Assembly (NCBI RefSeq): GCF_053078305.1
Contig: NZ_CP166875.1
Direction: 5' to 3' (one strand)
Source: a plasmid
Length of the DNA: 64,000 bases
Shown: positions 36,531-49,544 of the stretch, piece after piece
Numbering within the stretch: position 1 is the stretch's first letter
Layout: each line of letters begins with the position of its first letter
Made by a program: the position numbers and the translations under genes
The notes under the pieces: generated by a model
The model's database searches: none
What the model was told of the DNA's origin: nothing
The model's input: the letters and a program-made list of their open reading frames with translations, nothing else

Positions 36531-36681
36531 TGTAGTGAAAAGCGGGAAATGGAGGGAATGGTCAGTAACAGGGAATGTGGTATTATCGCGGCGGGTGTCT
36601 GAGCCTTTCTGGTTCAGGCAAGACGCAGGTACTAGAAATGCGAAGACCCCACTTGTTAATCCATTAACTCGTGAGGCCTGC

Positions 36682-36888
36682 ATGAAGTACTTGAACACTA
36701 CTGATTGTAGCCTCTTCCTTGCAGAGAGGTCAAAGTTTATGACGAAATATGCCCTTATCGGGTTGCTCGCCGTGTGCGCCACGGTGTTGTGTTTTTCACT
36801 GATATTCAGGGAACGGTTATGTGAGCTGAATATTCACAGGGGAAATACAGTGGTGCAGGTAACTCTGGCCTACGAAGCACGGAAGTAA
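36682..36888 (+). CDS. srnB: SrnB/PndA-type Hok-family type I toxin
   Basis: MKYLNTTDCSLFLAERSKFMTKYALIGLLAVCATVLCFSLIFRERLCELNIHRGNTVVQVTLAYEARK matches remembered SrnB. Confidence 0.8.
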   Translation: MKYLNTTDCSLFLAERSKFMTKYALIGLLAVCATVLCFSLIFRERLCELNIHRGNTVVQVTLAYEARK

Positions 36889-37171
36889 GCTGCCGGGCGG
36901 GGACGGAAGTCCCCGCTTTCCGGAAGTGTGAGGTATTTCAGGGGCAGACACCCGACATGCCAGAAACCGCCGGTCCCGCCCGGGGCCGGCACACAGGTTA
37001 AGGCATTTCCTGTTTTTCAGCCATTTCGCAACAAAAATCACATTAAACAACAGTAATCACCGTTGATTTGTGCGCCAACACAGATCTTCGTCACAATTCT
37101 CAAGTCGCTGATTTCAAAAAACTGTAGTATCCTCTGCGAAACGATCCCTGTTTGAGAATTGAGGAGGCGAG

Positions 37172-37432
37172 ATGTCGCAGACAGAAAATGCAGTGACTTC
37201 CTCATTGAGTCAAAAGCGGTTTGTGCGCAGAGGTAAGCCTATGACTGACTCTGAGAAACAAATGGCCGCTGTTGCAAGAAAACGTCTTACACACAAAGAG
37301 ATAAAAGTTTTTGTCAAAAATCCTCTGAAAGATCTCATGGTTGAGTACTGCGAGAGAGAGGGGATAACACAGGCTCAGTTCGTTGAGAAAATCATCAAAG
37401 ATGAACTGCAGAGACTGGATATACTAAAGTAA
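37172..37432 (+). CDS. copB: CopB (RepA2) transcriptional repressor of repA
   Basis: 86 aa, matches IncFII CopB; position upstream of copA/repA1. Confidence 0.85.
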
Positions 37433-37494
37433 AGACTTTACTTTGTGGCGTAGCATGCTAGATTACTGATCGTTTAAGGAATTTTGTGGCTGGC

Positions 37495-37585
37495 CACGCC
37501 ATAAGGTGGCAGGGAACTGGTTCTGATGTGGATGTACAGGAGCCAGAAAAGTGAAAACCCCGATAATCTTCTTTAACTTTGGCGA
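37495..37585 (-). ncRNA. copA: CopA antisense RNA (approximate bounds)
   Basis: region between copB and tap matches remembered R100 copA target sequence; bounds estimated. Confidence 0.55.
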
Positions 37586-37656
37586 GTGAGAAAGATTACC
37601 GGGGCCATCTAAAAACCGTATAGCCAACAATTCAGCTATGCGGGGAGTATAGTTAT

Positions 37657-37731
37657 ATGCCCGGAAAAGTTCAAGACTTCTTTCTGTGCTCGCTCCTTCT
37701 GCGCATTGTAAGTGCAGGATGGTGTGACTGA
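37657..37731 (+). CDS. tap: Tap (RepA6) leader peptide
   Basis: 24-codon [27 protein letters not shown] ending just after repA1 GTG start. Confidence 0.6.
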
Positions 37732-38581
37732 TCTTCAACAAACGTATTACCGCCAGGTAAAGAACCCGAATCCGGTGTTTACACCCCGTAAAGGTGCCGG
37801 AACGCTGAAGTTCTGCGAAAAACTGATGGAAAAGGCGGTGGGCTTCACCTCCCGTTTTGATTTCGCCATTCATGTGGCGCATGCCCGTTCGCGTGGTCTG
37901 CGTCGACGCATGCCACCGGTGCTGCGTCGACGGGCTATTGATGCGCTGCTGCAGGGGCTGTGTTTCCATTATGACCCGCTGGCCAACCGCGTCCAGTGTT
38001 CCATTACCACACTGGCCATTGAGTGCGGACTGGCGACAGAGTCCGGTGCAGGAAAACTCTCCATCACCCGGGCCACCCGGGCCCTGACGTTCCTGTCAGA
38101 GCTGGGACTGATTACCTACCAGACGGAATATGATCCGCTTATCGGGTGCTACATTCCGACCGATATCACGTTCACACCGGCGCTGTTTGCCGCCCTTGAT
38201 GTGTCTGAGGATGCAGTGGCAGCTGCGCGCCGCAGCCGTGTGGTATGGGAAAACAGACAGCGCAAAAAGCAGGGGCTGGATACCCTGGGTATGGATGAGC
38301 TGATAGCGAAAGCCTGGCGTTTTGTCCGTGAGCGTTTCCGCAGTTACCAGACAGAGCTTAAGTCCCACGGCATGAAACGTGCCCGTGCGCGCCGCGATGC
38401 AGGCAGAACCCGCCAGGACATTGTCACCCTGGTGAAACGGCAGCTGACGCGTGAAATCGCGGAAGGGCGTTTCCGGGGAAGCCTGGAGGCCGTGAAGCGC
38501 GAAATCGACCGTCGTGTGAAGGAACGCATGATAATGTCGCGTAACAACAACTACACACGGCTGGCCACTGCCTCCCCCTGA
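37724..38581 (+). CDS. repA1: RepA1 IncFII replication initiator (GTG start)
   Basis: [22 protein letters not shown]... near-identical to remembered R100 RepA1. Confidence 0.9.
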
Positions 38582-38599
38582 GTTTTACCTCATCTGAAT

Positions 38600-38900
38600 A
38601 ATCCGGCCTGCGCCGGAGGCATCTGCACGCCTGAAGCCTGTCAGCGAACAAAAAAACAGCACCACATACAAAAAACAATCTCATCATCCCGCTTCTGGTG
38701 CATCCGGCCCCCCTGTTTTCGATACAAAACATGCCTCACTGACGGGGAATTTTGCTTATCCACATTTAACTGCAAGGGACTTCCCCATAAAGTTACAACC
38801 GTTCATGTCATAAAGCGCCAGCCGCCAGCCTTACAGGGTGCAATGTATCTTTTAAACACCTGTTTATATCTCCTTTAAACCACTTAACTACATTCATTTA
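38600..38900. promoter_or_regulatory. oriR-type origin region with DnaA box TTATCCACA at 38756-38764
   Basis: DnaA box and AT-rich stretch downstream of repA1 as in R1/R100. Confidence 0.6.
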
Positions 38901-39157
38901 AAAAGAAAACCTATTCACTGCCTGTCCTGTGGACAGACAGATATGCACCTCCCACCGCAAGCGGCGGGCCCCGACCGGAGCCACTTTAGTTACAACACTC
39001 AGATACAACCACCAGAAAAACCCAAGTCCCGCGCAGAACTGAAACCACAAAGCCCCTCCTCATAACTGAAAAGCGGCCCCGCCCCGGCCCAAAGGGCCGG
39101 AACAGAGTCGCTTTTAATTATGAATGTTGTAACTATACTCCATCATTGCTGTCAGTA

Positions 39158-39427
39158 TTCTGGCTGGAAGTCCTCAGTACACGCTCGTAAGCGGCCCTCA
39201 CGGCCCGCTAACGCGGAGATACGCCCCGACTTCGGGTAAACCCTCGTCGGGACCACTCCGACCGCGCACATAAGCTCTATCATAGCTGACAGCGGGTATG
39301 GCTTTGCAGGGTGGGGATGGGTAAGGTGAAATCTATCAATCAGTACCGGCTTACGCCGGGCTTCGGCGGTTTTACTCCGGTATCACATGTAACCACAGCG
39401 TGCCGCCTTACATGCGCTGACGCGCAT
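39158..39427. repeat. 270-bp GC-rich structured segment, copy A (IncFII ori-downstream type)
   Basis: ~90% identical direct repeat of 41040-41310. Confidence 0.7.
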
Positions 39428-39516
39428 AAACAACAAGTTGCTACATTAGCTTACAGGTTAATTCACCTTGCATAAGATTAGCATATAGGTTAATGTTTAT
39501 CGAAATGGGAGGTCAT

Positions 39517-39846
39517 ATGTTTAGCGTTGTTTATCACCCGGAAGCCAGGGAAGAAGCCACAGCATTACCCATAAAAATCAGGGTGAAGTTTGACCGTCTC
39601 ATCAGCAAACTGGAATATGACGCCCGATTACTGCGGGAACCGGATACAAAGCCCCTGGGGGATGGACTTTTTGAGATCCGCACGATGGGGACGGACATAG
39701 CCAGAGGCATCTGGGTATACCACAAAGGCAATACCATCATCATGCTCCGGGTTTTCATCAAGAAGTCTCAGAAAACGCCAGCAAAAGAAATCGATCTCGC
39801 CAAAAAGCGGTTAGCGGAGGTACTTAATGAAACTGGTAAGCCATAA
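39517..39846 (+). CDS. HigB/RelE-family toxin
   Basis: toxin-first order followed by overlapping HTH gene. Confidence 0.65.
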   Translation: MFSVVYHPEAREEATALPIKIRVKFDRLISKLEYDARLLREPDTKPLGDGLFEIRTMGTDIARGIWVYHKGNTIIMLRVFIKKSQKTPAKEIDLAKKRLAEVLNETGKP

Positions 39847-40108
39847 AGAACTGCATAACGAGTGGATGCAGGACGACGAATATCGCGCTGCATGGCAGGA
39901 AGAAGAACGTAAGGAGAAACTCAGGGAGTTGCTTGCAGAATGGCGTAAGCATGACAATTTGACAAAAGCGCAGGTTGCTGAACGCATGGGGGTTACTCCT
40001 CCTGTTATTTCCCGCCTGGAAAACAACATCACTAAAGCCAGCATCGACACCCTGACTCGCTATGCCCATGCGTGCGGTATCAAAAAACCTGTTATTACGC
40101 TGTACTGA
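39827..40108 (+). CDS. HigA-like HTH-XRE antitoxin
   Basis: 93 aa, HTH motif LTKAQVAERMGVTPPVISRLEN. Confidence 0.65.
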   Translation: MKLVSHKELHNEWMQDDEYRAAWQEEERKEKLRELLAEWRKHDNLTKAQVAERMGVTPPVISRLENNITKASIDTLTRYAHACGIKKPVITLY

Positions 40109-40296
40109 ACTCTGCTCTATGGCTGCCAGTTCTGGAGAAATCAGTAACTAAATTTTAATTAGCTACGTTATGGTAAATCTGCCTGATGTGTCGATTTCTC
40201 TGAAAGTAATTCGGCTTCTGTGGGCTGCGTTTGCCTTGTGCCACCTGAATGTAATCACTATGATTAAATATGATTAACAACTAATCGGATATACAA

Positions 40297-40575
40297 ATGA
40301 AAAACAATACCGCACAGGCAACAAAAGTAATTACCGCGCATGTGCCATTACCTATGGCTGATAAAGTCGACCAGATGGCCGCCAGACTGGAACGCTCCCG
40401 GGGCTGGGTTATCAAACAGGCACTTTCTGCATGGCTTGCCCAGGAGGAGGAGCGTAATCGCCTGACGCTGGAAGCCCTGGACGATGTGATATCCGGACAG
40501 ATTATCGACCATCAGGCTGTACAGGCCTGGGCAGACAGCCTCAGTACTGACAATCCGTTACCGGTTCCACGCTGA
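40297..40575 (+). CDS. ribbon-helix-helix antitoxin (ParD/CopG-like)
   Basis: 92 aa upstream of and coupled to ParE-like ORF. Confidence 0.6.
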   Translation: MKNNTAQATKVITAHVPLPMADKVDQMAARLERSRGWVIKQALSAWLAQEEERNRLTLEALDDVISGQIIDHQAVQAWADSLSTDNPLPVPR

Positions 40576-40850
40576 TGGAACTGAAGTGGACCAGTAAGGC
40601 GCTTTCTGATTTGGCGCGGTTATATGATTTTCTGGTGCTGGCCAGTAAACCTGCCGCCGCCAGAATGGTACAGTCCCTGATACAGGCACCGGTCATTCTG
40701 TTAACTCATCCACGTATGGGAGAACAGTTGTTTCAGTTTGAACCCAGGGAGGTCAGACGGATTTTTGCTGGCGAGTACGAAATCCGTTACGAACTTAATG
40801 GGCTGCGTTTGGGAAACGTACAATATTGTACGGTTGCGCTATTGCGGTAG
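40575..40850 (+). CDS. ParE/RelE-family toxin
   Basis: 91 aa, ATGA overlap with antitoxin. Confidence 0.6.
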   Translation: MELKWTSKALSDLARLYDFLVLASKPAAARMVQSLIQAPVILLTHPRMGEQLFQFEPREVRRIFAGEYEIRYELNGLRLGNVQYCTVALLR

Positions 40851-41039
40851 GGTGTACTCCAACGCTATACGGTATTTGGCAGACCTTTAGGGACATGAGA
40901 TAACCTAAATGCAATAAGAGAAAAGCAATAACTTAAAGGCGATAGCTGATCACGATGAATCAATCAGTTACTTATCCGCATCGATTAAAAAATGCTCCTA
41001 ACGTACAATAATTCCGTTTCCCAAACCGACCCCTCAGTG

Positions 41040-41310
41040 TTCTGGCTGGAAGTCCTCAGTACACGCTCGTAAGCGGCCCTGACGGCCCGCTAACGCGGAG
41101 ATACGCCCCGACTTCGGGTAAACCCTCGTCGGGACCACTCCGACCGCGCACAGAAGCTCTCTCATGGCTGAAAGCGGGTATGGCTTAACAGGGTGGGAAT
41201 GGGATAGGCGAAATCTATCAATCAGTACCGGCTTACGCCGGGCTTCGGCGGTTTTACTCCGGTATCACATGTAACCACAGCGTACCGCCTTCCATGCCGC
41301 TGGCGCGGCA
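41040..41310. repeat. 270-bp GC-rich structured segment, copy B
   Basis: direct repeat of 39158-39427. Confidence 0.7.
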
Positions 41311-41385
41311 TATCATGGTGACGATATCTGAATCGTTATATACTGTGTATATACGTGGTAATGACGAGGTGATAAATGGCACAGG

Positions 41386-41469
41386 TTAATATGAGTTTAA
41401 GAATCGACGCTGAACTGAAGGATGCTTTTATGGGGTCAGCCTGGAATTCGGAAAATAAACCACGTTAAG
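41386..41469 (+). pseudogene. truncated RHH antitoxin remnant (MAQVNMSLRIDAELKDAF...)
   Basis: 27-codon ORF with RelB/ParD-like N-terminus, no toxin partner. Confidence 0.4.
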
Positions 41470-41640
41470 ACTATTTTTTAGCCAAATGACTGTCAGGAAT
41501 CCGGACGGTCGGAACATTTCGTACAGCCTTTACGTTCAGTGAGTTAGCTGGCCTGGATGTAACCACTCGTTCAACTCAATTCTCTTAGCGTGGGAAAATT
41601 TCCGTTTTCCAAGCGGACCCCTAGAAGAAGGGAAGCGATA

Positions 41641-42057
41641 TCAAGCCCAGGGATTAATAATTGATACTCCGGTTAATTCAAAATCACCAACATTTCTGGT
41701 TACAACCGTCATCCCATGTACCAGCGCCGTTGCTGCGATCAATGCGTCTCGTTCACTGCGCCTGTCGGGAACATGTAAACGAGAACAACGTAATGCAACC
41801 GCAGTATCTACAGGAAGTATCTTATCAGAAAACGCTGGTAACACATGCTGATCCATCCAAGAACGTAGCATAATCCCTTGTCGCATATCTCGACGTTCAA
41901 CTTGTAATATTCCCTGTTCAAGTTCCATTATGGAAATAACAGAAATAAAGAAATCTGCCGCATCTGTATGCAATACCCATTTTGCAACATTATTATCTAT
42001 ACGTCCTGTCCGAGCCTTCCGTAGCTCAGAGATAACATTAGTATCAAGAATATACAC
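41641..42057 (-). CDS. vagD: VapC/VagD PIN-domain toxin
   Basis: 138 aa, MYILDTNVISE PIN motif. Confidence 0.85.
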   Translation of the reverse strand: MYILDTNVISELRKARTGRIDNNVAKWVLHTDAADFFISVISIMELEQGILQVERRDMRQGIMLRSWMDQHVLPAFSDKILPVDTAVALRCSRLHVPDRRSERDALIAATALVHGMTVVTRNVGDFELTGVSIINPWA

Positions 42058-42311
42058 TATAAAAACTCCGCAGGTTTTAAACTAACCGTAATACGAGGCG
42101 GTTCAAATTCAACTGCATCAGCATCGGGCATCGCCAGAATGTCAATGAGAGTTCGTCGTTGTTGCGTCAATTTTCGGTATTCTTCGATACTAAGAAGTAC
42201 ATGTGCGGTTTTACCCCGATCAGTAATAAATACTGGACCATAATTCGTGGCGCGTTTGGCTCGAGTTACATCTTGATTAAGTTCCCGACTGGATAGGGTT
42301 GTAATCTTCAT
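42057..42311 (-). CDS. vagC: VapB/VagC antitoxin
   Basis: MKITTLSSRELNQDV..., overlaps toxin start. Confidence 0.8.
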   Translation of the reverse strand: MKITTLSSRELNQDVTRAKRATNYGPVFITDRGKTAHVLLSIEEYRKLTQQRRTLIDILAMPDADAVEFEPPRITVSLKPAEFL

Positions 42312-42424
42312 GCTGTTGCCTTTTGATGTATATAGGTACGTTACTACATTGTAGGGCATGAAATAGTACAATGCAAGAAATGTACTTGATTAGGGGTAGT
42401 CTTCGCCGCTTGTTGCTGTCAGAT

Positions 42425-42458
42425 ATTAATGCTAATGTATGCATACATTAGCATTAAT
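42425..42458. promoter_or_regulatory. 34-bp perfect palindrome ATTAATGCTAATGTATGCATACATTAGCATTAAT
   Basis: perfect dyad in divergent intergenic region. Confidence 0.45.
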
Positions 42459-42470
42459 GAGGGATGATAT

Positions 42471-42884
42471 GTGAGAGACAAAACCAGGGAGGCCATGCGG
42501 TTTTTTTTAGGCGGCAGGTGTTACACGGCTGAAAACCTTGAAAAGGATTATCTGGCTGAAGTTGCTAATTACAGTGACGACCGCTGGGAAGCACCCCAAC
42601 GCGCCGCACGTCTGGCAGCTGCCGTAAAGCGTTACAAGACATCAGAAATGCTGCGCTTTATTTTTGCTACCACTGCCTACGATCCCGATCCAGATTTAAC
42701 CCCGCTGACTGTGAGACGTTTGTGCAAGGCATTGTTCGGCAGAACAGGAAGCCAGTGGCTGGTTGTTGAAGTTTTTGGGGAGAAGGGGCGTCAGCACCGC
42801 AGCGCGGACAGCAATCCGGAGATGGTGGAAAAAGGGGGTTCGCGCCCATTTCCTCTAAAAGTCTCACCTTGCTTAGGTAATTAA
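42471..42884 (+). pseudogene. hypothetical ORF whose 3' end runs into the Tn3-family left IR
   Basis: ORF C-terminus encoded by IR sequence at 42834-42884. Confidence 0.35.
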
Positions 42885-42890
42885 TTGAAT

Positions 42891-43472
42891 TTATTTATAA
42901 AACGTTGCAATTTTAGCATCATTTTTTATTGTTCTTTTTAACCTGAAGTACGTCGATCGAGAGATACCTGTTTTTTCTGTCACACTGCCCAGAGATTCTC
43001 CCTGTGATATAAGCTCCAACGCTGTAGGCGTTCGTGGATGCTTCTTCCTGCCAAATTTTACGCCTGCGGCAAGTGCCGCTATTCTTCCGTCGTTTGTCCG
43101 CTCCAGAATACGCTCACGTTCCGCTTCAGCTACAGCAGCAAGGATTTGGATAACCATTTTGCCCATTGTCCCTTCTGTACTGAGACCGTTCTCCAGGAAC
43201 CGGATGGCGATCCCCTTTTTGTAACAGCTATCAACCACACGAATCATGTCAGCAGTGTTACGCCCCAGTCGGTCCATTTTTGTACAGATGATTACGTCGT
43301 CTTTCTCTGCACGGGCCAACAACCGCTGTAGTCCTTCCCGTTCATCAGTTGCGCCAGTCATCATATCCGTAAAAATACGATCTTCCCGTACCCCGGCATT
43401 TTTTAGCTCCGAGATTTGATGTGTTAGCTTCTGATGACTGGTTGATACCCGTGCATACCCCAATAACGCCAT
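42891..43472 (-). CDS. tnpR: serine-recombinase resolvase TnpR
   Basis: MALLGYARVSTSHQ catalytic Ser motif, C-terminal HTH. Confidence 0.85.
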   Translation of the reverse strand: MALLGYARVSTSHQKLTHQISELKNAGVREDRIFTDMMTGATDEREGLQRLLARAEKDDVIICTKMDRLGRNTADMIRVVDSCYKKGIAIRFLENGLSTEGTMGKMVIQILAAVAEAERERILERTNDGRIAALAAGVKFGRKKHPRTPTALELISQGESLGSVTEKTGISRSTYFRLKRTIKNDAKIATFYK

Positions 43473-43484
43473 TTTTAGTCTCAC

Positions 43485-43628
43485 TTATCGTTTTTGACAC
43501 TGCATGGTATCATAATGTACAAAATACGATTTTTGAAACCTGCTTTTATGCTGTTTTAGACAGGTATCAGATATCTTAATATTTGATACTAGCCATATTT
43601 AACAAATATTTAGCATTTTGGTAAATGT
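43485..43628. promoter_or_regulatory. res site region between tnpR and tnpA
   Basis: divergent intergenic region with TGTC..GACA-type dyads. Confidence 0.5.
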
Positions 43629-46600
43629 ATGCAGAAGTACAAGAAAAGAATTAGTATATTAACAAAAAGTGAAATAAATGAATTATATCAAGTCCCCTCT
43701 TTTAATCCTGTTGAAAGGGATGAGTTTTTTTCGCTGGATATCAGCCTTAAAAGAGAAATTGATAAAATAATAAATATAGAAAGCAGGGTGTATCTGATAT
43801 TAATAACAGGGTATTTCAGATATAAACCTGTGATTCCTGAATTTACATTAAAAGACGTAAAAAGGGATGTGAAATATATTATCCAGACATATTATAAAAA
43901 CGAAAGTACTAATCTCAATTTAAACATACCTAAAAGTACAAAGTACCGCCTTGTTAAACGAATGCTTTCTACTCTAGGATTTGAACAACTCACCCCATCT
44001 ATAAAAAATGAGTTAAGTGAACGTCTGAATGATGTTGCTACTATATGTATGGAACCAAAATATATTTTTGATGAATTACTTGCTTTTTTAGGACAGCGGC
44101 GTATAGCTCTTCCTGGATACAGTACTGTCCAGAACCTCGTTTCAGATGCTTTAAACTTTGAAAGGAAAAGGACAATTAATATTTTGTCAAAGAGAATTTA
44201 TCCTGCCACTGCACAAAAGATTACATCCATCATCCATGATGATGGAATATTAAATTCCATCAGGGGATATAATTATAGCACGAGAGACTTCTCAGCATCA
44301 GAAATAGAAAATGAATTAAGAACTCACAATGTGATAAGTAGTATTTACTATGAAATAAAAGATATAATTAATTCATTAGGTATATCCCAGGGAAACATGG
44401 AGTACTATGCAACTATCGTAAAACACAGTACAACATTCAGACTTAAGCGACACCCTAAATGGCAAGGAATACTTTATTTGTGCTGCTACTTGTACTTCAG
44501 ATACAGAGAGATAAATGATAAAATAATCACAGCCTTCAGATATTTAGTAAAAAAACATAAAGACGCTTCAGTTTTGTTTGCAAAAGCTCGGGCAACAGAG
44601 GAAATAGATCTAATAAATAAAAAGCTTAAGTTTGCGAGTAAAATATTTAACTTCTTCGTTGATAGTAACATTGAAGACAGCATCCCTTTTGGATATGTTC
44701 GTGAAAAGGTTTTTTCACTTATATCGAAAGATGATATGCATCTTGTGAGTGAATTTTTTGACAAAAATAAAATCGATGTAATTGAATATCAATGGCAGTA
44801 TATTGACAGCCATCACCTTAAGATCGCCAATTCAATCCGAAAGCTTTTTCTGGCTATAGATATAGTATATGACAACGAGAAGTCTGTTATTGGCCAGCAA
44901 ATTACTGCTGCCAAGGATGATCTCAGAGGAAAAGGAAAGCTGGATGCTAAGGATCTGAGGGTAATTCATCCATCCGAGAAAAATTACATTGTAAAAGAAG
45001 GAGAAATTAACACTCAACGATTCGAATTTCATATGTACAGCAGGGTATCTAACCATCTGGAAAACGGTGTCTTTTATGCTGCGGAGAGTGAACAAAACAA
45101 GAGACTGGAAGATGATCTCATAGAACGAAGTTACTGGCATAAGAATAAATCGATTTTGATAGAGAAAACAGGCCTTGAACGACTTATCACACCAATAACG
45201 CAGACTCTTAATGAGCTGGAGAATACCTTTAGCGATAAACTGGCTCGTATAACCATTGGAATAAACTCAGATGCTAATGAGTTTGTGAAAAAACAACCAC
45301 ACTCCAACAGATTACAGTGGAGTCTGGCCAGTAAAAAATGGAAGACCAGCATCGATAATCCGATTTACAATCAGATAAAAAATATCGGAATAGTTGACGT
45401 AATGAAGTATGTAAACAATGAGACGAATTTTTTGTCTGTGTTTAATGCCATATCATCCAGGAAAAATAATCTTGAAGCTGACTATAATGACCTTCTTGCC
45501 TGTATATTTGGTAATGGCGCAAATTATGGTGTTCACAGAATGGCATCTGCATCAGACCGTAGTATTGGAATACTACGTGATGTGAATGACAAATTCATTC
45601 GTCCAGAAACAACAGGAATGGCCAACACAGTAATATCTGATGCAATTGCAAATCTTTCTGTATATAAATACTGGACGATAAATGAAGATTCTCCATTTGG
45701 AAGTGTTGATGGGCAGAAGCACACTTGCAGAATAAATACATTTAAAGCCCGTTATTCTGCCAAGTATTTCAGAAAGGGGAAAGGGGTTTCTGCGATGACA
45801 CTGGTATCTAATCATGTGCCATTATCAACTGTGGTAATTTCTCCAAATGAATATGAAGGTCATTTTGCATTTGACTTGTTATATAACAACACCAGTGAAA
45901 TACAACCAAAGTCATTAGCGACTGACAATCATGGTATAAACAACGTTAATTTTGCGATTCTTGACATTTTTGGCTATCAGTTTTCACCACGTTATGCAAA
46001 ATTCAAGAAAATATTTAATGAATTATTTGATGTTATACTGGAGAGTGATAAACTCATTATAAAACTTAAAAAACAATTTAACTTTAAGCTCATTGAACAT
46101 GAATGGGAAAACATCCAACATATTATTTGTTCTTTAAGCAGAAAAACAACCATTCAAAGTACGGTTGTTAAGAAGTTATCTAATACAAAGCGTAGCAACA
46201 AGACATTAGCAGCACTTCGGGAGTATGACCGAGTTATAAAATGCATATATGTCCTGGATTATGCTGACAATAAAACCTTAAGGCAATTTGTGCAACAAGC
46301 ACTGAACAGAGGTGAAGCTTATCATCAACTAAGAAGAGCAATAGCATCAGTAAATGGAAATCAATTTCGCGGTGGTAATGACTACCAAATAGATCAATGG
46401 AACGACTGTGCGAGGTTAATAGCTAATTGTGTAATCTATTATAATTCAGCAATATTATCCAGGCTGGTCGAGAAATTTGAAAAAGAAAATAATAAAAAAG
46501 CGATAGATGTTCTGGCTAACTTATCCCCAGTAGCATGGAGACACATTCTCCTTGGAGGGAATTATTCTTTTGAAGATCAAGTTGCGATCACAAATTTGGA

Positions 46601-46667
46601 CAGTCTTTTGGAGGGAGTAGACCCACTAAGTGATATCGGAGATATTGAGTCCGAATATGACGGTTAA
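43629..46667 (+). CDS. tnpA: Tn3-family transposase TnpA
   Basis: 1012 aa, AT-rich, typical size for the family. Confidence 0.9.
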   Translation: MQKYKKRISILTKSEINELYQVPSFNPVERDEFFSLDISLKREIDKIINIESRVYLILITGYFRYKPVIPEFTLKDVKRDVKYIIQTYYKNESTNLNLNIPKSTKYRLVKRMLSTLGFEQLTPSIKNELSERLNDVATICMEPKYIFDELLAFLGQRRIALPGYSTVQNLVSDALNFERKRTINILSKRIYPATAQKITSIIHDDGILNSIRGYNYSTRDFSASEIENELRTHNVISSIYYEIKDIINSLGISQGNMEYYATIVKHSTTFRLKRHPKWQGILYLCCYLYFRYREINDKIITAFRYLVKKHKDASVLFAKARATEEIDLINKKLKFASKIFNFFVDSNIEDSIPFGYVREKVFSLISKDDMHLVSEFFDKNKIDVIEYQWQYIDSHHLKIANSIRKLFLAIDIVYDNEKSVIGQQITAAKDDLRGKGKLDAKDLRVIHPSEKNYIVKEGEINTQRFEFHMYSRVSNHLENGVFYAAESEQNKRLEDDLIERSYWHKNKSILIEKTGLERLITPITQTLNELENTFSDKLARITIGINSDANEFVKKQPHSNRLQWSLASKKWKTSIDNPIYNQIKNIGIVDVMKYVNNETNFLSVFNAISSRKNNLEADYNDLLACIFGNGANYGVHRMASASDRSIGILRDVNDKFIRPETTGMANTVISDAIANLSVYKYWTINEDSPFGSVDGQKHTCRINTFKARYSAKYFRKGKGVSAMTLVSNHVPLSTVVISPNEYEGHFAFDLLYNNTSEIQPKSLATDNHGINNVNFAILDIFGYQFSPRYAKFKKIFNELFDVILESDKLIIKLKKQFNFKLIEHEWENIQHIICSLSRKTTIQSTVVKKLSNTKRSNKTLAALREYDRVIKCIYVLDYADNKTLRQFVQQALNRGEAYHQLRRAIASVNGNQFRGGNDYQIDQWNDCARLIANCVIYYNSAILSRLVEKFEKENNKKAIDVLANLSPVAWRHILLGGNYSFEDQVAITNLDSLLEGVDPLSDIGDIESEYDG

Positions 46668-46733
46668 CAACATGATAAATAATGGTTTTTATGCTAAGAG
46701 TGAGACTTTTGGAGGAAATGGGCGCAGAACCCC

Positions 46734-49111: not shown

Positions 49112-49270
49112 CTACTTACCGGATTCGTAAGCCATGAAAGCCGCCACCTCCCTGTATCCGTCTCTGTAACGAATCTCGCACAGCGATTTTCGTGTCAGAT
49201 AAGTAAATATCAACAGTGTGAGACACACAATCAACACACACCAGACAAGAGAGCTGCGTGGTAGTTTCAT
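49112..49270 (-). CDS. hok: Hok host-killing type I toxin; overlapping mok frame extends to 49411
   Basis: [52 protein letters not shown]. Confidence 0.85.
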
Positions 49271-49544
49271 GGCCTTCTTCTCCTTGCGCAAAGCGCGGTA
49301 AGAGGCTATCCTGATGTTGTCAGACATATGGGATGCCTCGTGGGTTAATGAAAAATTAACTACGGGGCTATCTTCTTTCTGCCACACAACACGGTAACAA
49401 ACCACCTTCACGTCATGAGGCAGAAAGCCTCAAGCGCCGGGCACATCATAGCCCATATACCTGCACGCTGACCACACTCACTTTTCCTGAAAATAACCCG
49501 CTCATTCAGGCTGTTTACGGGTAATCTGTGTGATTGTTGCCGCA

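Follow-up and report, generated by a model that had tools for sequence, protein, structure and literature searches.

A ParE-like toxin gene that ends in a miniature Tn3-type element, and the mosaic of toxin-antitoxin genes behind an IncFII replicon

Plasmids of the IncF group are well documented to carry multiple toxin-antitoxin (TA) systems (PMC7326226), and the question raised by the locus described here is how many of the modules that it appears to carry could still work. The locus lies in a window of 64,000 nucleotides (contig NZ_CP166875.1, RefSeq assembly GCF_053078305.1) that is part of an IncF conjugative plasmid of Escherichia coli; all positions refer to this window unless another record is named. 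Four open reading frames (ORFs) of the same orientation fill positions 39517-40850, downstream of the IncFII repA gene (37712..38581, +; NCBIfam incFII_RepA, E 2.9e-175), and their significant Pfam family matches (Table 1) agree with the original prediction of two type II TA modules of different families, one higBA-like and one parDE-like, arranged head-to-tail. None of the four proteins, here called HigB, HigA, ParD and ParE', has an NCBIfam equivalog. The original prediction also named toxin genes that prove non-toxic, or disrupted on closer alignment, as what would overturn it; such alignment found parE, one of the two toxin genes, to be disrupted.

The explanation that we consider highly likely is that the locus is a variable slot behind the replicon, which holds an intact HigBA module, a decayed ParDE module and a stub of the antitoxin gene yacA, with junctions marked by Tn3-derived miniature elements (TIMEs). 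The anatomy of the locus, its breakpoints, the family assignments and the recurrence of its parts are observed directly, and the activities that we discuss are all predicted from sequence. All components are of a known kind and are already present in public databases under family-level names, and the locus is ordinary plasmid mosaicism, not a new system.

The ParDE-like and HigBA-like modules

The second toxin gene is a chimera, which we refer to as parE'. Its codons 1-76 (40575-40802) are genuine parE, and its codons 77-91 and stop codon come from the left inverted repeat of a miniature element, TIME-A. The encoded protein is identical to the alleles of pO157 and of the Shiga toxin-producing E. 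coli (STEC) plasmid p_STEC1585_2 up to residue 76 (…YELNG), after which LRLGNVQYCTVALLR replaces the conserved QTIYVLRLWHTRENR. At the DNA level, the window and p_STEC1585_2 are 99.5% identical over 38500-40801; homology ends there, and the STEC parE runs on to its conserved end. The toxin gene would have been cut after codon 76 by TIME-A. No frameshift is involved: what now forms the 3' end is a terminal inverted repeat belonging to the inserted element, and the equal length of parE' and the intact alleles (91 residues) is a coincidence.

Among 45 homologues from many Proteobacteria, which are 74-87% identical and all 91 residues long, residues at 10 of the final 15 positions never vary or are shared by at least 90% (Y80, L82, R83, L84, W85, H86, T87, R88, E89, and R91), and ParE' has lost all of these residues except R91. 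The AlphaFold2 (AF2) model of the intact allele (predicted local distance difference test, pLDDT, 82.8) consists of a two-helix hairpin followed by strands at residues 60-65, 68-75, and 78-86, and each of the 22 solved structures that resemble it most is a ParE-type toxin (template modelling, TM, score ~0.7), ahead of RelE and YoeB. The modelled fold favors ParE over RelE for the intact allele, with DNA gyrase as a candidate target only. Since the breakpoint falls after codon 76 and a strand is modelled at residues 78-86, the last core β-strand is predicted to have been removed from ParE'. The AF2 model of ParE' itself, which we treat as soft evidence, is poorer (pLDDT 64.3; predicted TM score, pTM, 0.48; pLDDT ~50 in the sheet region).

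Truncations of related toxins have been studied. Residues 1-81 of VcParE2, without much of β4, are non-toxic, and loss of the disordered tail alone leaves toxicity (bioRxiv 10.1101/2025.07.24.666505); C-terminally truncated ParE-I (YacB; 201 of 282 bp) is also non-toxic (PMC6614396), and C-terminal truncation of Caulobacter ParE1 is cited in PMC6813445 as lowering both toxicity and solubility. By analogy, ParE' is very probably not a functional toxin. ParD would then be made together with a probably inert ParE' and would remain as an orphan antitoxin and repressor; the window contains no second parE and no yacB.

ParD is intact and 98-100% identical to the pO157 and pFHI alleles, and its nearest solved structure is the CopG-family antitoxin 7etr_A. 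The region upstream of parD is common to the window and pO157 from position 40230 onward, and a direct repeat upstream of the gene, ATGATTAA-AT-ATGATTAA (40260..40277, +), is a putative operator for this ribbon-helix-helix (RHH) protein. The parD stop codon and the parE start overlap in the ATGA-type manner at 40572-40577, so that, as is expected for ParDE, an antitoxin gene is found upstream of and translationally coupled to a gene for a PF05016 toxin; the complete toxin fold with its C-terminal strand is missing. ParD does not match the RK2-family ParD (PF09386), its only matches being to RHH_1 and, among precomputed hits, RelB3_C, and PF09386 accounts for only ~1% of ParE partners (PMC7848731). 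A PrpA-like role in copy-number control was considered for ParD and rejected as a family assignment: PrpA belongs to PF03693, unlike ParD (RHH_1/RelB3_C), and iterons of that kind are lacking in IncFII. In the record NZ_CP045714.1 (2569-3300), RefSeq labels the chimeric ParE' as an ordinary toxin (WP_000421250.1), and the parD start is an ATA codon that corresponds to the ATG of other alleles.

The HigBA-like module has the organization expected of its family, in which the toxin gene comes first: a full-length toxin of the Gp49/HigB branch is followed on the same strand by an antitoxin of the XRE type with a helix-turn-helix (HTH) domain, whose gene overlaps that of the toxin by 20 nt. A GGGAGG Shine-Dalgarno sequence precedes higB at 39507-39512. 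The HigB protein is 100% identical to WP_000493283.1, is present on at least 1000 contigs, and has HigB of Streptococcus pneumoniae (6af3) as its nearest solved structure (E 2.7e-5); HigA has no close relative among solved structures. Two 18-bp quasi-palindromic repeats, ATTAGCNTANAGGTTAAT, lie 32 bp apart at 39445-39462 and 39477-39494. They are the sole two matches to this motif in the window, are kept in a Klebsiella copy of the cassette despite its different flanks, and are probably HigA operators in the higBA promoter region. No biochemical data for this higBA allele were found. Based on what is typical of the family, HigBA would act by post-segregational killing, in which labile HigA would neutralize HigB and repress the operon via the two operator repeats, and plasmid-free segregants would be arrested by HigB, presumably a ribosome-dependent ribonuclease (RNase) that cleaves mRNA.

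The slot behind the replicon and its junctions

Both modules lie between two direct copies, A and B, of a 275-bp repeat (Table 1), which are ~95% identical to each other. Typical IncFII plasmids have one copy of this segment, ending CGCTGRCGCG, and at least 5000 records match it. Copy B is 97% identical to pUTI89 and 94% to p77, and the corresponding values for copy A are ~91-92%. The minus strand of copy A folds into nested hairpins (z = -3.0). Each copy has a 43-residue minus-strand ORF (39152-39283 and 41034-41165) that some draft assemblies call a hypothetical protein and that is probably not a gene. The repeat is probably the primase "G-site" region of R1 and R100; a literature search on this assignment gave nothing.

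The slot that follows the IncFII replicon (repA, oriR, and the 275-bp end) would be variable and filled with different TA cassettes in different plasmids. In pO157, base 39427 is joined directly to 40230, which places parDE right after the replicon and makes higBA an 802-bp insert relative to pO157. A Klebsiella plasmid has the higBA cassette (39445-40108) alone in an unrelated context, p77 has yacAB beyond the 275-bp segment, and STEC plasmids have the higBA-parDE tandem with an intact parE. Among the 72,556 plasmids of PLSDB, the higA-to-parD tandem junction is present in seven, parDE alone in ~1400, and higBA alone in ~1290.

TIME-A supplies the end of parE'. Its inverted repeats, which match imperfectly, read GGGCTGCGTTTGGGAAACGTACAATATTGTACGG at one end and GGGGTCGGTTTGGGAAACGGAATTATTGTACGTTAGG at the other, the latter given as the reverse complement. 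The element is collinear with MITESen1 (66% global identity, with one 22-bp gap; reference sequence from Table S2 of Gomi & Yano 2026, PMC13367494), and its identity to IS101, TIME244, and IMU is only ~50%; we assign it, on this comparison, to the MITESen1 family of TIMEs. TIME-A is found in 1669 PLSDB plasmid records, where it is unannotated, and is near full length in 457 of them. The case for its mobility consists of the inverted repeats, the occurrence of dispersed copies, and homology with MITESen1. The left and right flanks of the window copy, TTAAT and TCAGT, do not form a target-site duplication.

Several observations were made on TIME-A-like elements in other records. In NZ_CP045714.1, the sequence past the shared junction consists of nested TIME ends, the reverse complement of the MITESen1 left repeat and then another repeat-like sequence. 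In six plasmids among the matches listed, the TIME-A-like copies break off within the right inverted repeat, at query position 209, and in the one of these six that was examined (NZ_CP035124.1, 1501-2802), an IS110-family transposase gene begins ~80 bp past the break, presumably a case similar to the targeting of Tn21-family repeats by IS4321/IS5075. An IncFII plasmid of Klebsiella grimontii (NZ_CP056688.1, ~215-497) has a MITESen1-type element ~20 bp past the conserved replicon end (…TGACGCGCAT), and the slot behind the replicon seems to attract TIMEs in other lineages too.

On the right of TIME-A, copy B runs on, as it does in p77, into the yacA upstream region and yacA codons 1-19, and the sequence then switches into a second element, TIME-B. 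Neither the remainder of yacA nor any part of yacB is present in the window. The complete system, ParDE-I of IncI and IncF plasmids, has been studied experimentally (Kamruzzaman & Iredell 2019, PMC6614396); the alignment indicates that yacAB in the window is a relic and not a module. The inverted repeats of TIME-B, GGGGTCAGCCTGGAATTCGGAAAATAAACCACGTTAAG and GGGGTCCGCTTGGAAAACGGAAATTTTCCCACGCTAAG, match at 29 of 38 positions, and the left repeat shares 30 of 38 with its counterpart, the left repeat of IMU. Full-length relatives of TIME-B are ~285 bp, and one of them, in an Escherichia albertii plasmid, is flanked by a perfect 5-bp duplication (ATGTT), a signature of the Tn3 family; at least 5000 records contain related sequence, for the most part as incomplete matches. 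The window copy ends 19 bp from the vagD stop codon, and its left and right flanks, TTTAT and TAGAA, show no target-site duplication. The second replicon-end fragment, with its 19 yacA codons, would have been cut by TIME-B and would now abut an intact vagCD.

Both elements are within the 50-500 bp range of TIMEs, lack a transposase gene, and have Tn3-related terminal repeats and multiple dispersed copies; the 5-bp (sometimes 6-bp) flanking direct repeats of TIMEs are absent from both window copies. Since neither has a target duplication, each TIME would mark a recombination or deletion junction, not a simple insertion, and since the novel junctions are TIME ends without a duplication, their likeliest origin would be recombination between TIME copies, or deletion or inversion by intramolecular replicative transposition. 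The original prediction had both modules share one inserted segment, and our comparisons point instead to a composite stitched together at Tn3-type miniature elements, a patchwork of at least three separately acquired pieces and a miniature transposon between the repeats.

Among the PLSDB plasmids, only pFHI_NMBU_11_02 has the parE::TIME-A junction, and the TIME-A::copy B junction was found in none. Nevertheless, 999 contigs encode the chimeric ParE', and four independent NCBI draft assemblies share window positions 36576-42833 at ~99% identity, which argues that the architecture is neither private nor artefactual. CP027641.1 carries an intact higBA-parDE, a 100% identical copy of TIME-A elsewhere, and the yacA'::TIME-B::vagD junction at 99.6% identity. 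It was considered as a direct ancestor and rejected because, though that junction is present, the second repeat does not begin there until window base 41225.

Table 1. Positions and family matches of the features in and around the TA locus
Feature	Coordinates	Strand	Basis or remark
CopA antisense RNA	37549-37639		Among RNA matches; just upstream of repA
Repeat copy A, 275 bp	39152..39427		Conserved distal end of IncFII basic replicon; ends at CGCTGACGCGCAT
higB-like toxin gene, 109 aa, intact	39517..39846	+	Pfam Gp49/HigB-type PF05973, E 6.9e-23, profile positions 4-89 of 90
higA-like XRE-HTH antitoxin gene, 93 aa	39827..40108	+	Pfam HTH_3 PF01381, E 1.7e-13; at least 1000 contigs
parD-like RHH antitoxin gene, 92 aa, intact	40297..40575	+	Pfam RHH_1 PF01402, E 1.1e-10
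parE', chimeric ORF, 91 aa	40575..40850	+	ParE_toxin PF05016, E 1.4e-11, profile positions 1-71 of 89
TIME-A, 234 bp, no ORF	40800..41033	+	Tn3-derived miniature element; imperfect terminal inverted repeats; related to MITESen1
Repeat copy B, 275 bp	41034..41307		Different IncFII lineage; directly right of TIME-A
yacA', first 19 codons of YacA (ParD-I) antitoxin gene, with upstream region	41376..41432	+	Alignment to yacAB of p77
TIME-B, 190 bp	41432..41621	+	Tn21/IMU-like 38-bp inverted repeats; inverted-repeat comparison
vagD, VapC-type PIN toxin gene, intact	41641..42057	-	Pfam PIN, E 2.7e-13
vagC, Phd/YefM-type antitoxin gene, 84 aa as called in related drafts	42057..42311	-	PhdYeFM_antitox, E 5.2e-9

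Alternative readings of the locus

Several points weigh against a decayed ParDE module joined at mobile TIMEs. The homologues behind the expected loss of toxicity share only ~20-28% sequence identity. In one study the disordered C-terminal tail of VcParE2 was dispensable, so that only the loss of the β-strand can carry the argument. The peptide that has taken the strand's place is hydrophobic and might in principle mimic it; AF2 does predict strands in this peptide, with low confidence. The abundance of the chimeric allele could mean that it is tolerated or even useful. Finally, a perfect 5-bp duplication was found at none of the six TIME-A-family copies examined.

One alternative, which we consider very unlikely, is that both modules are functional, with ParE' toxic despite its new C-terminus and the pair forming a double type II addiction or abortive-infection unit. 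ParE' keeps the 91-residue length and the intact ATGA-type overlap with parD, is labelled a toxin by RefSeq (WP_000421250.1), recurs on 999 contigs, and retains the N-terminal α-hairpin that carries the key gyrase-contact residue in VcParE2. However, it has lost the last core strand and the conserved C-terminal residues, comparable truncations of three other ParE-family toxins are non-toxic or less toxic, the confidence of its model falls in the sheet, and no PADLOC defence family was matched. The scan of PADLOC-DB v2 gave only weak generic-domain matches, of HigB to 53 of 293 positions of NsnC (E 4e-6) and of HigA to generic HTH models only, and ParD, ParE', VagC, and VagD had no match; it lends no support to the anti-phage abortive-infection role that had been proposed for such pairs.

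A non-toxic ParE' could also be of use. An intact parD with a dead parE might be kept by selection as an anti-addiction (immunity) cassette against the ParE of competing IncF plasmids, in which case the lineage could displace competing parDE plasmids or survive their loss. This would be consistent with the intact parD and its retained upstream region, with the ~1400 PLSDB plasmids that have an intact parDE of the same type, with the lack of another intact parE in the window, and with the many contigs that encode ParE'. We nevertheless regard it as unlikely: the lineage is young, with ~99% identity among copies, so that retention of parD needs no selection, and the abundance of ParE' may just reflect a successful host clone. 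Also doubtful is the wider proposal that the slot is a turnover site where Tn3-derived TIMEs repeatedly break and rejoin TA cassettes and where orphan ParD is kept as immunity against the ~1400 parDE plasmids. On this proposal, the TIMEs would have silenced both toxins of the ParE family (gyrase-poison type) in this lineage and spared HigBA and VagCD, the RNase-type modules. If it is true that orphan ParD protects against the ParE of competitors, it would be a neat natural case of anti-addiction. Finally, the 1.6-kb inter-repeat segment, or a TIME-bounded piece of it, might move as one unit, either as a composite transposon or by way of a circle that would arise when the repeats recombine. Direct repeats of ~95% identity bound the segment and TIME-bounded composites are documented (PMC13367494), but its pieces are found separately (parDE alone, higBA alone, and the tandem without the second repeat), TIME-A and TIME-B have different types of inverted repeats, there are no flanking target duplications, and the TIME-A/copy B junction is absent from PLSDB; movement as one unit is very improbable.

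Over the 2.8 kb from 39517 to 42311 there are four type II modules or relics, in which both of the ParE family (parDE and yacAB) are inactivated and both of the RNase type (higBA and vagCD) are intact. This pattern may be due to chance.

If the locus is, as we favor, a variable slot with an intact HigBA and a decayed ParDE, then several corrections follow: one toxin is a mis-annotated pseudogene, a third module, of the ParE family, is a stub, and the segment is joined at unannotated TIMEs. Public annotation, RefSeq WP_000421250.1 included, lists ParE' as a normal toxin, whereas what about a thousand contigs encode is a chimera truncated by a transposon; counts of addiction modules per plasmid are thereby inflated. 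The heavy loading with addiction modules that was originally claimed for this plasmid is real for IncF and documented (PMC7326226), but the functional load is lower than it appears, as parE is broken and yacAB is a 19-codon stub. The unannotated miniature Tn3-type elements at every novel junction are easily missed, yet they account for the mosaic.

Surrounding features and comparison with known systems

The other TA systems named in the original prediction were found in their expected places. The vagCD genes (41641-42311), described as a further 0.8 kb away, start 791 bp past the parE-like ORF on the opposite strand, and the two type I systems (srnB and hok) correspond to two Rfam matches to sok, at 36593-36749 and 49268-49439, which are adjoined by SrnB-like and Hok peptides. 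Antisense RNAs of tra were also found elsewhere in the window. A perfect 34-nt palindrome (ATTAATGCTAATGTATG/CATACATTAGCATTAAT, 42425-42458), located ~115 bp upstream of vagC, recurs in pFHI_NMBU_11_02 and p77 and may be the vagCD operator.

Positions 42834-46733 are taken up by a small but complete transposon of the Tn3 family. It has inverted repeats at 42834-42855 and 46712-46733 with three mismatches, a serine resolvase gene (42891-43484, -) and a gene for a 1012-residue DDE_Tnp_Tn3 transposase (43629-46667, +), and the flanking bases, AAAAA and TGTAT, show no duplication. The transposon interrupts an ORF of 155 residues in related drafts, resulting in a chimeric ORF of 137 residues at 42471-42884. 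The transposon was considered as a transposase source for the TIMEs and rejected, as its inverted repeats are unlike those of TIME-A or TIME-B.

The locus has counterparts among known systems. The kis/kid genes (parD of R1) and pemIK of R100 adjoin the IncFII basic replicon, and the locus is similar to both in having a type II TA system directly beside the IncFII replication region, but differs from them in toxin family, theirs being of the MazF/Kid type. TIME-A and TIME-B resemble published TIMEs in that they are 190-234 bp, non-coding, dispersed on enterobacterial plasmids, and bounded by ~38-bp GGGG-initiated terminal repeats of the Tn3-family type. Compared with the four published TIMEs, however, TIME-B matches none beyond the inverted repeats and TIME-A is only 66% identical to MITESen1.

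The HigBA-like module shares with the HigBA family (HigBA of Rts1 and of S. pneumoniae, PDB 6AF3) a toxin-first order with a small Gp49/HigB-type toxin of the RelE superfamily, an XRE HTH antitoxin, overlapping genes, and repeated operator-like motifs upstream. It differs in that its toxin is only distantly similar to the closest HigB of known structure (27 bits, E 2.7e-5), and the module scores below the NCBIfam cut-off of the best-matching toxin subfamily (16.9 vs. 62.85). The yacA stub follows the arrangement of YacAB (ParDE-I) in that the upstream region and 19 yacA codons come after a replicon-end copy exactly as in p77. Similar to other ParDE modules (the pO157/STEC allele; SoParE-CopG, 7ETR; PaParE, 6XRW), the ParDE-like module has an RHH antitoxin upstream of an overlapping gene for a 91-residue PF05016 toxin, and the intact pO157/STEC-type allele models as a ParE fold. 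Its antitoxin is of the RHH_1/RelB3_C type, neither RK2 ParD (PF09386) nor PrpA (PF03693), and, unlike those modules, the toxin in the window is without residues 77-91, the last β-strand, whose place has been taken by the end of a transposon.

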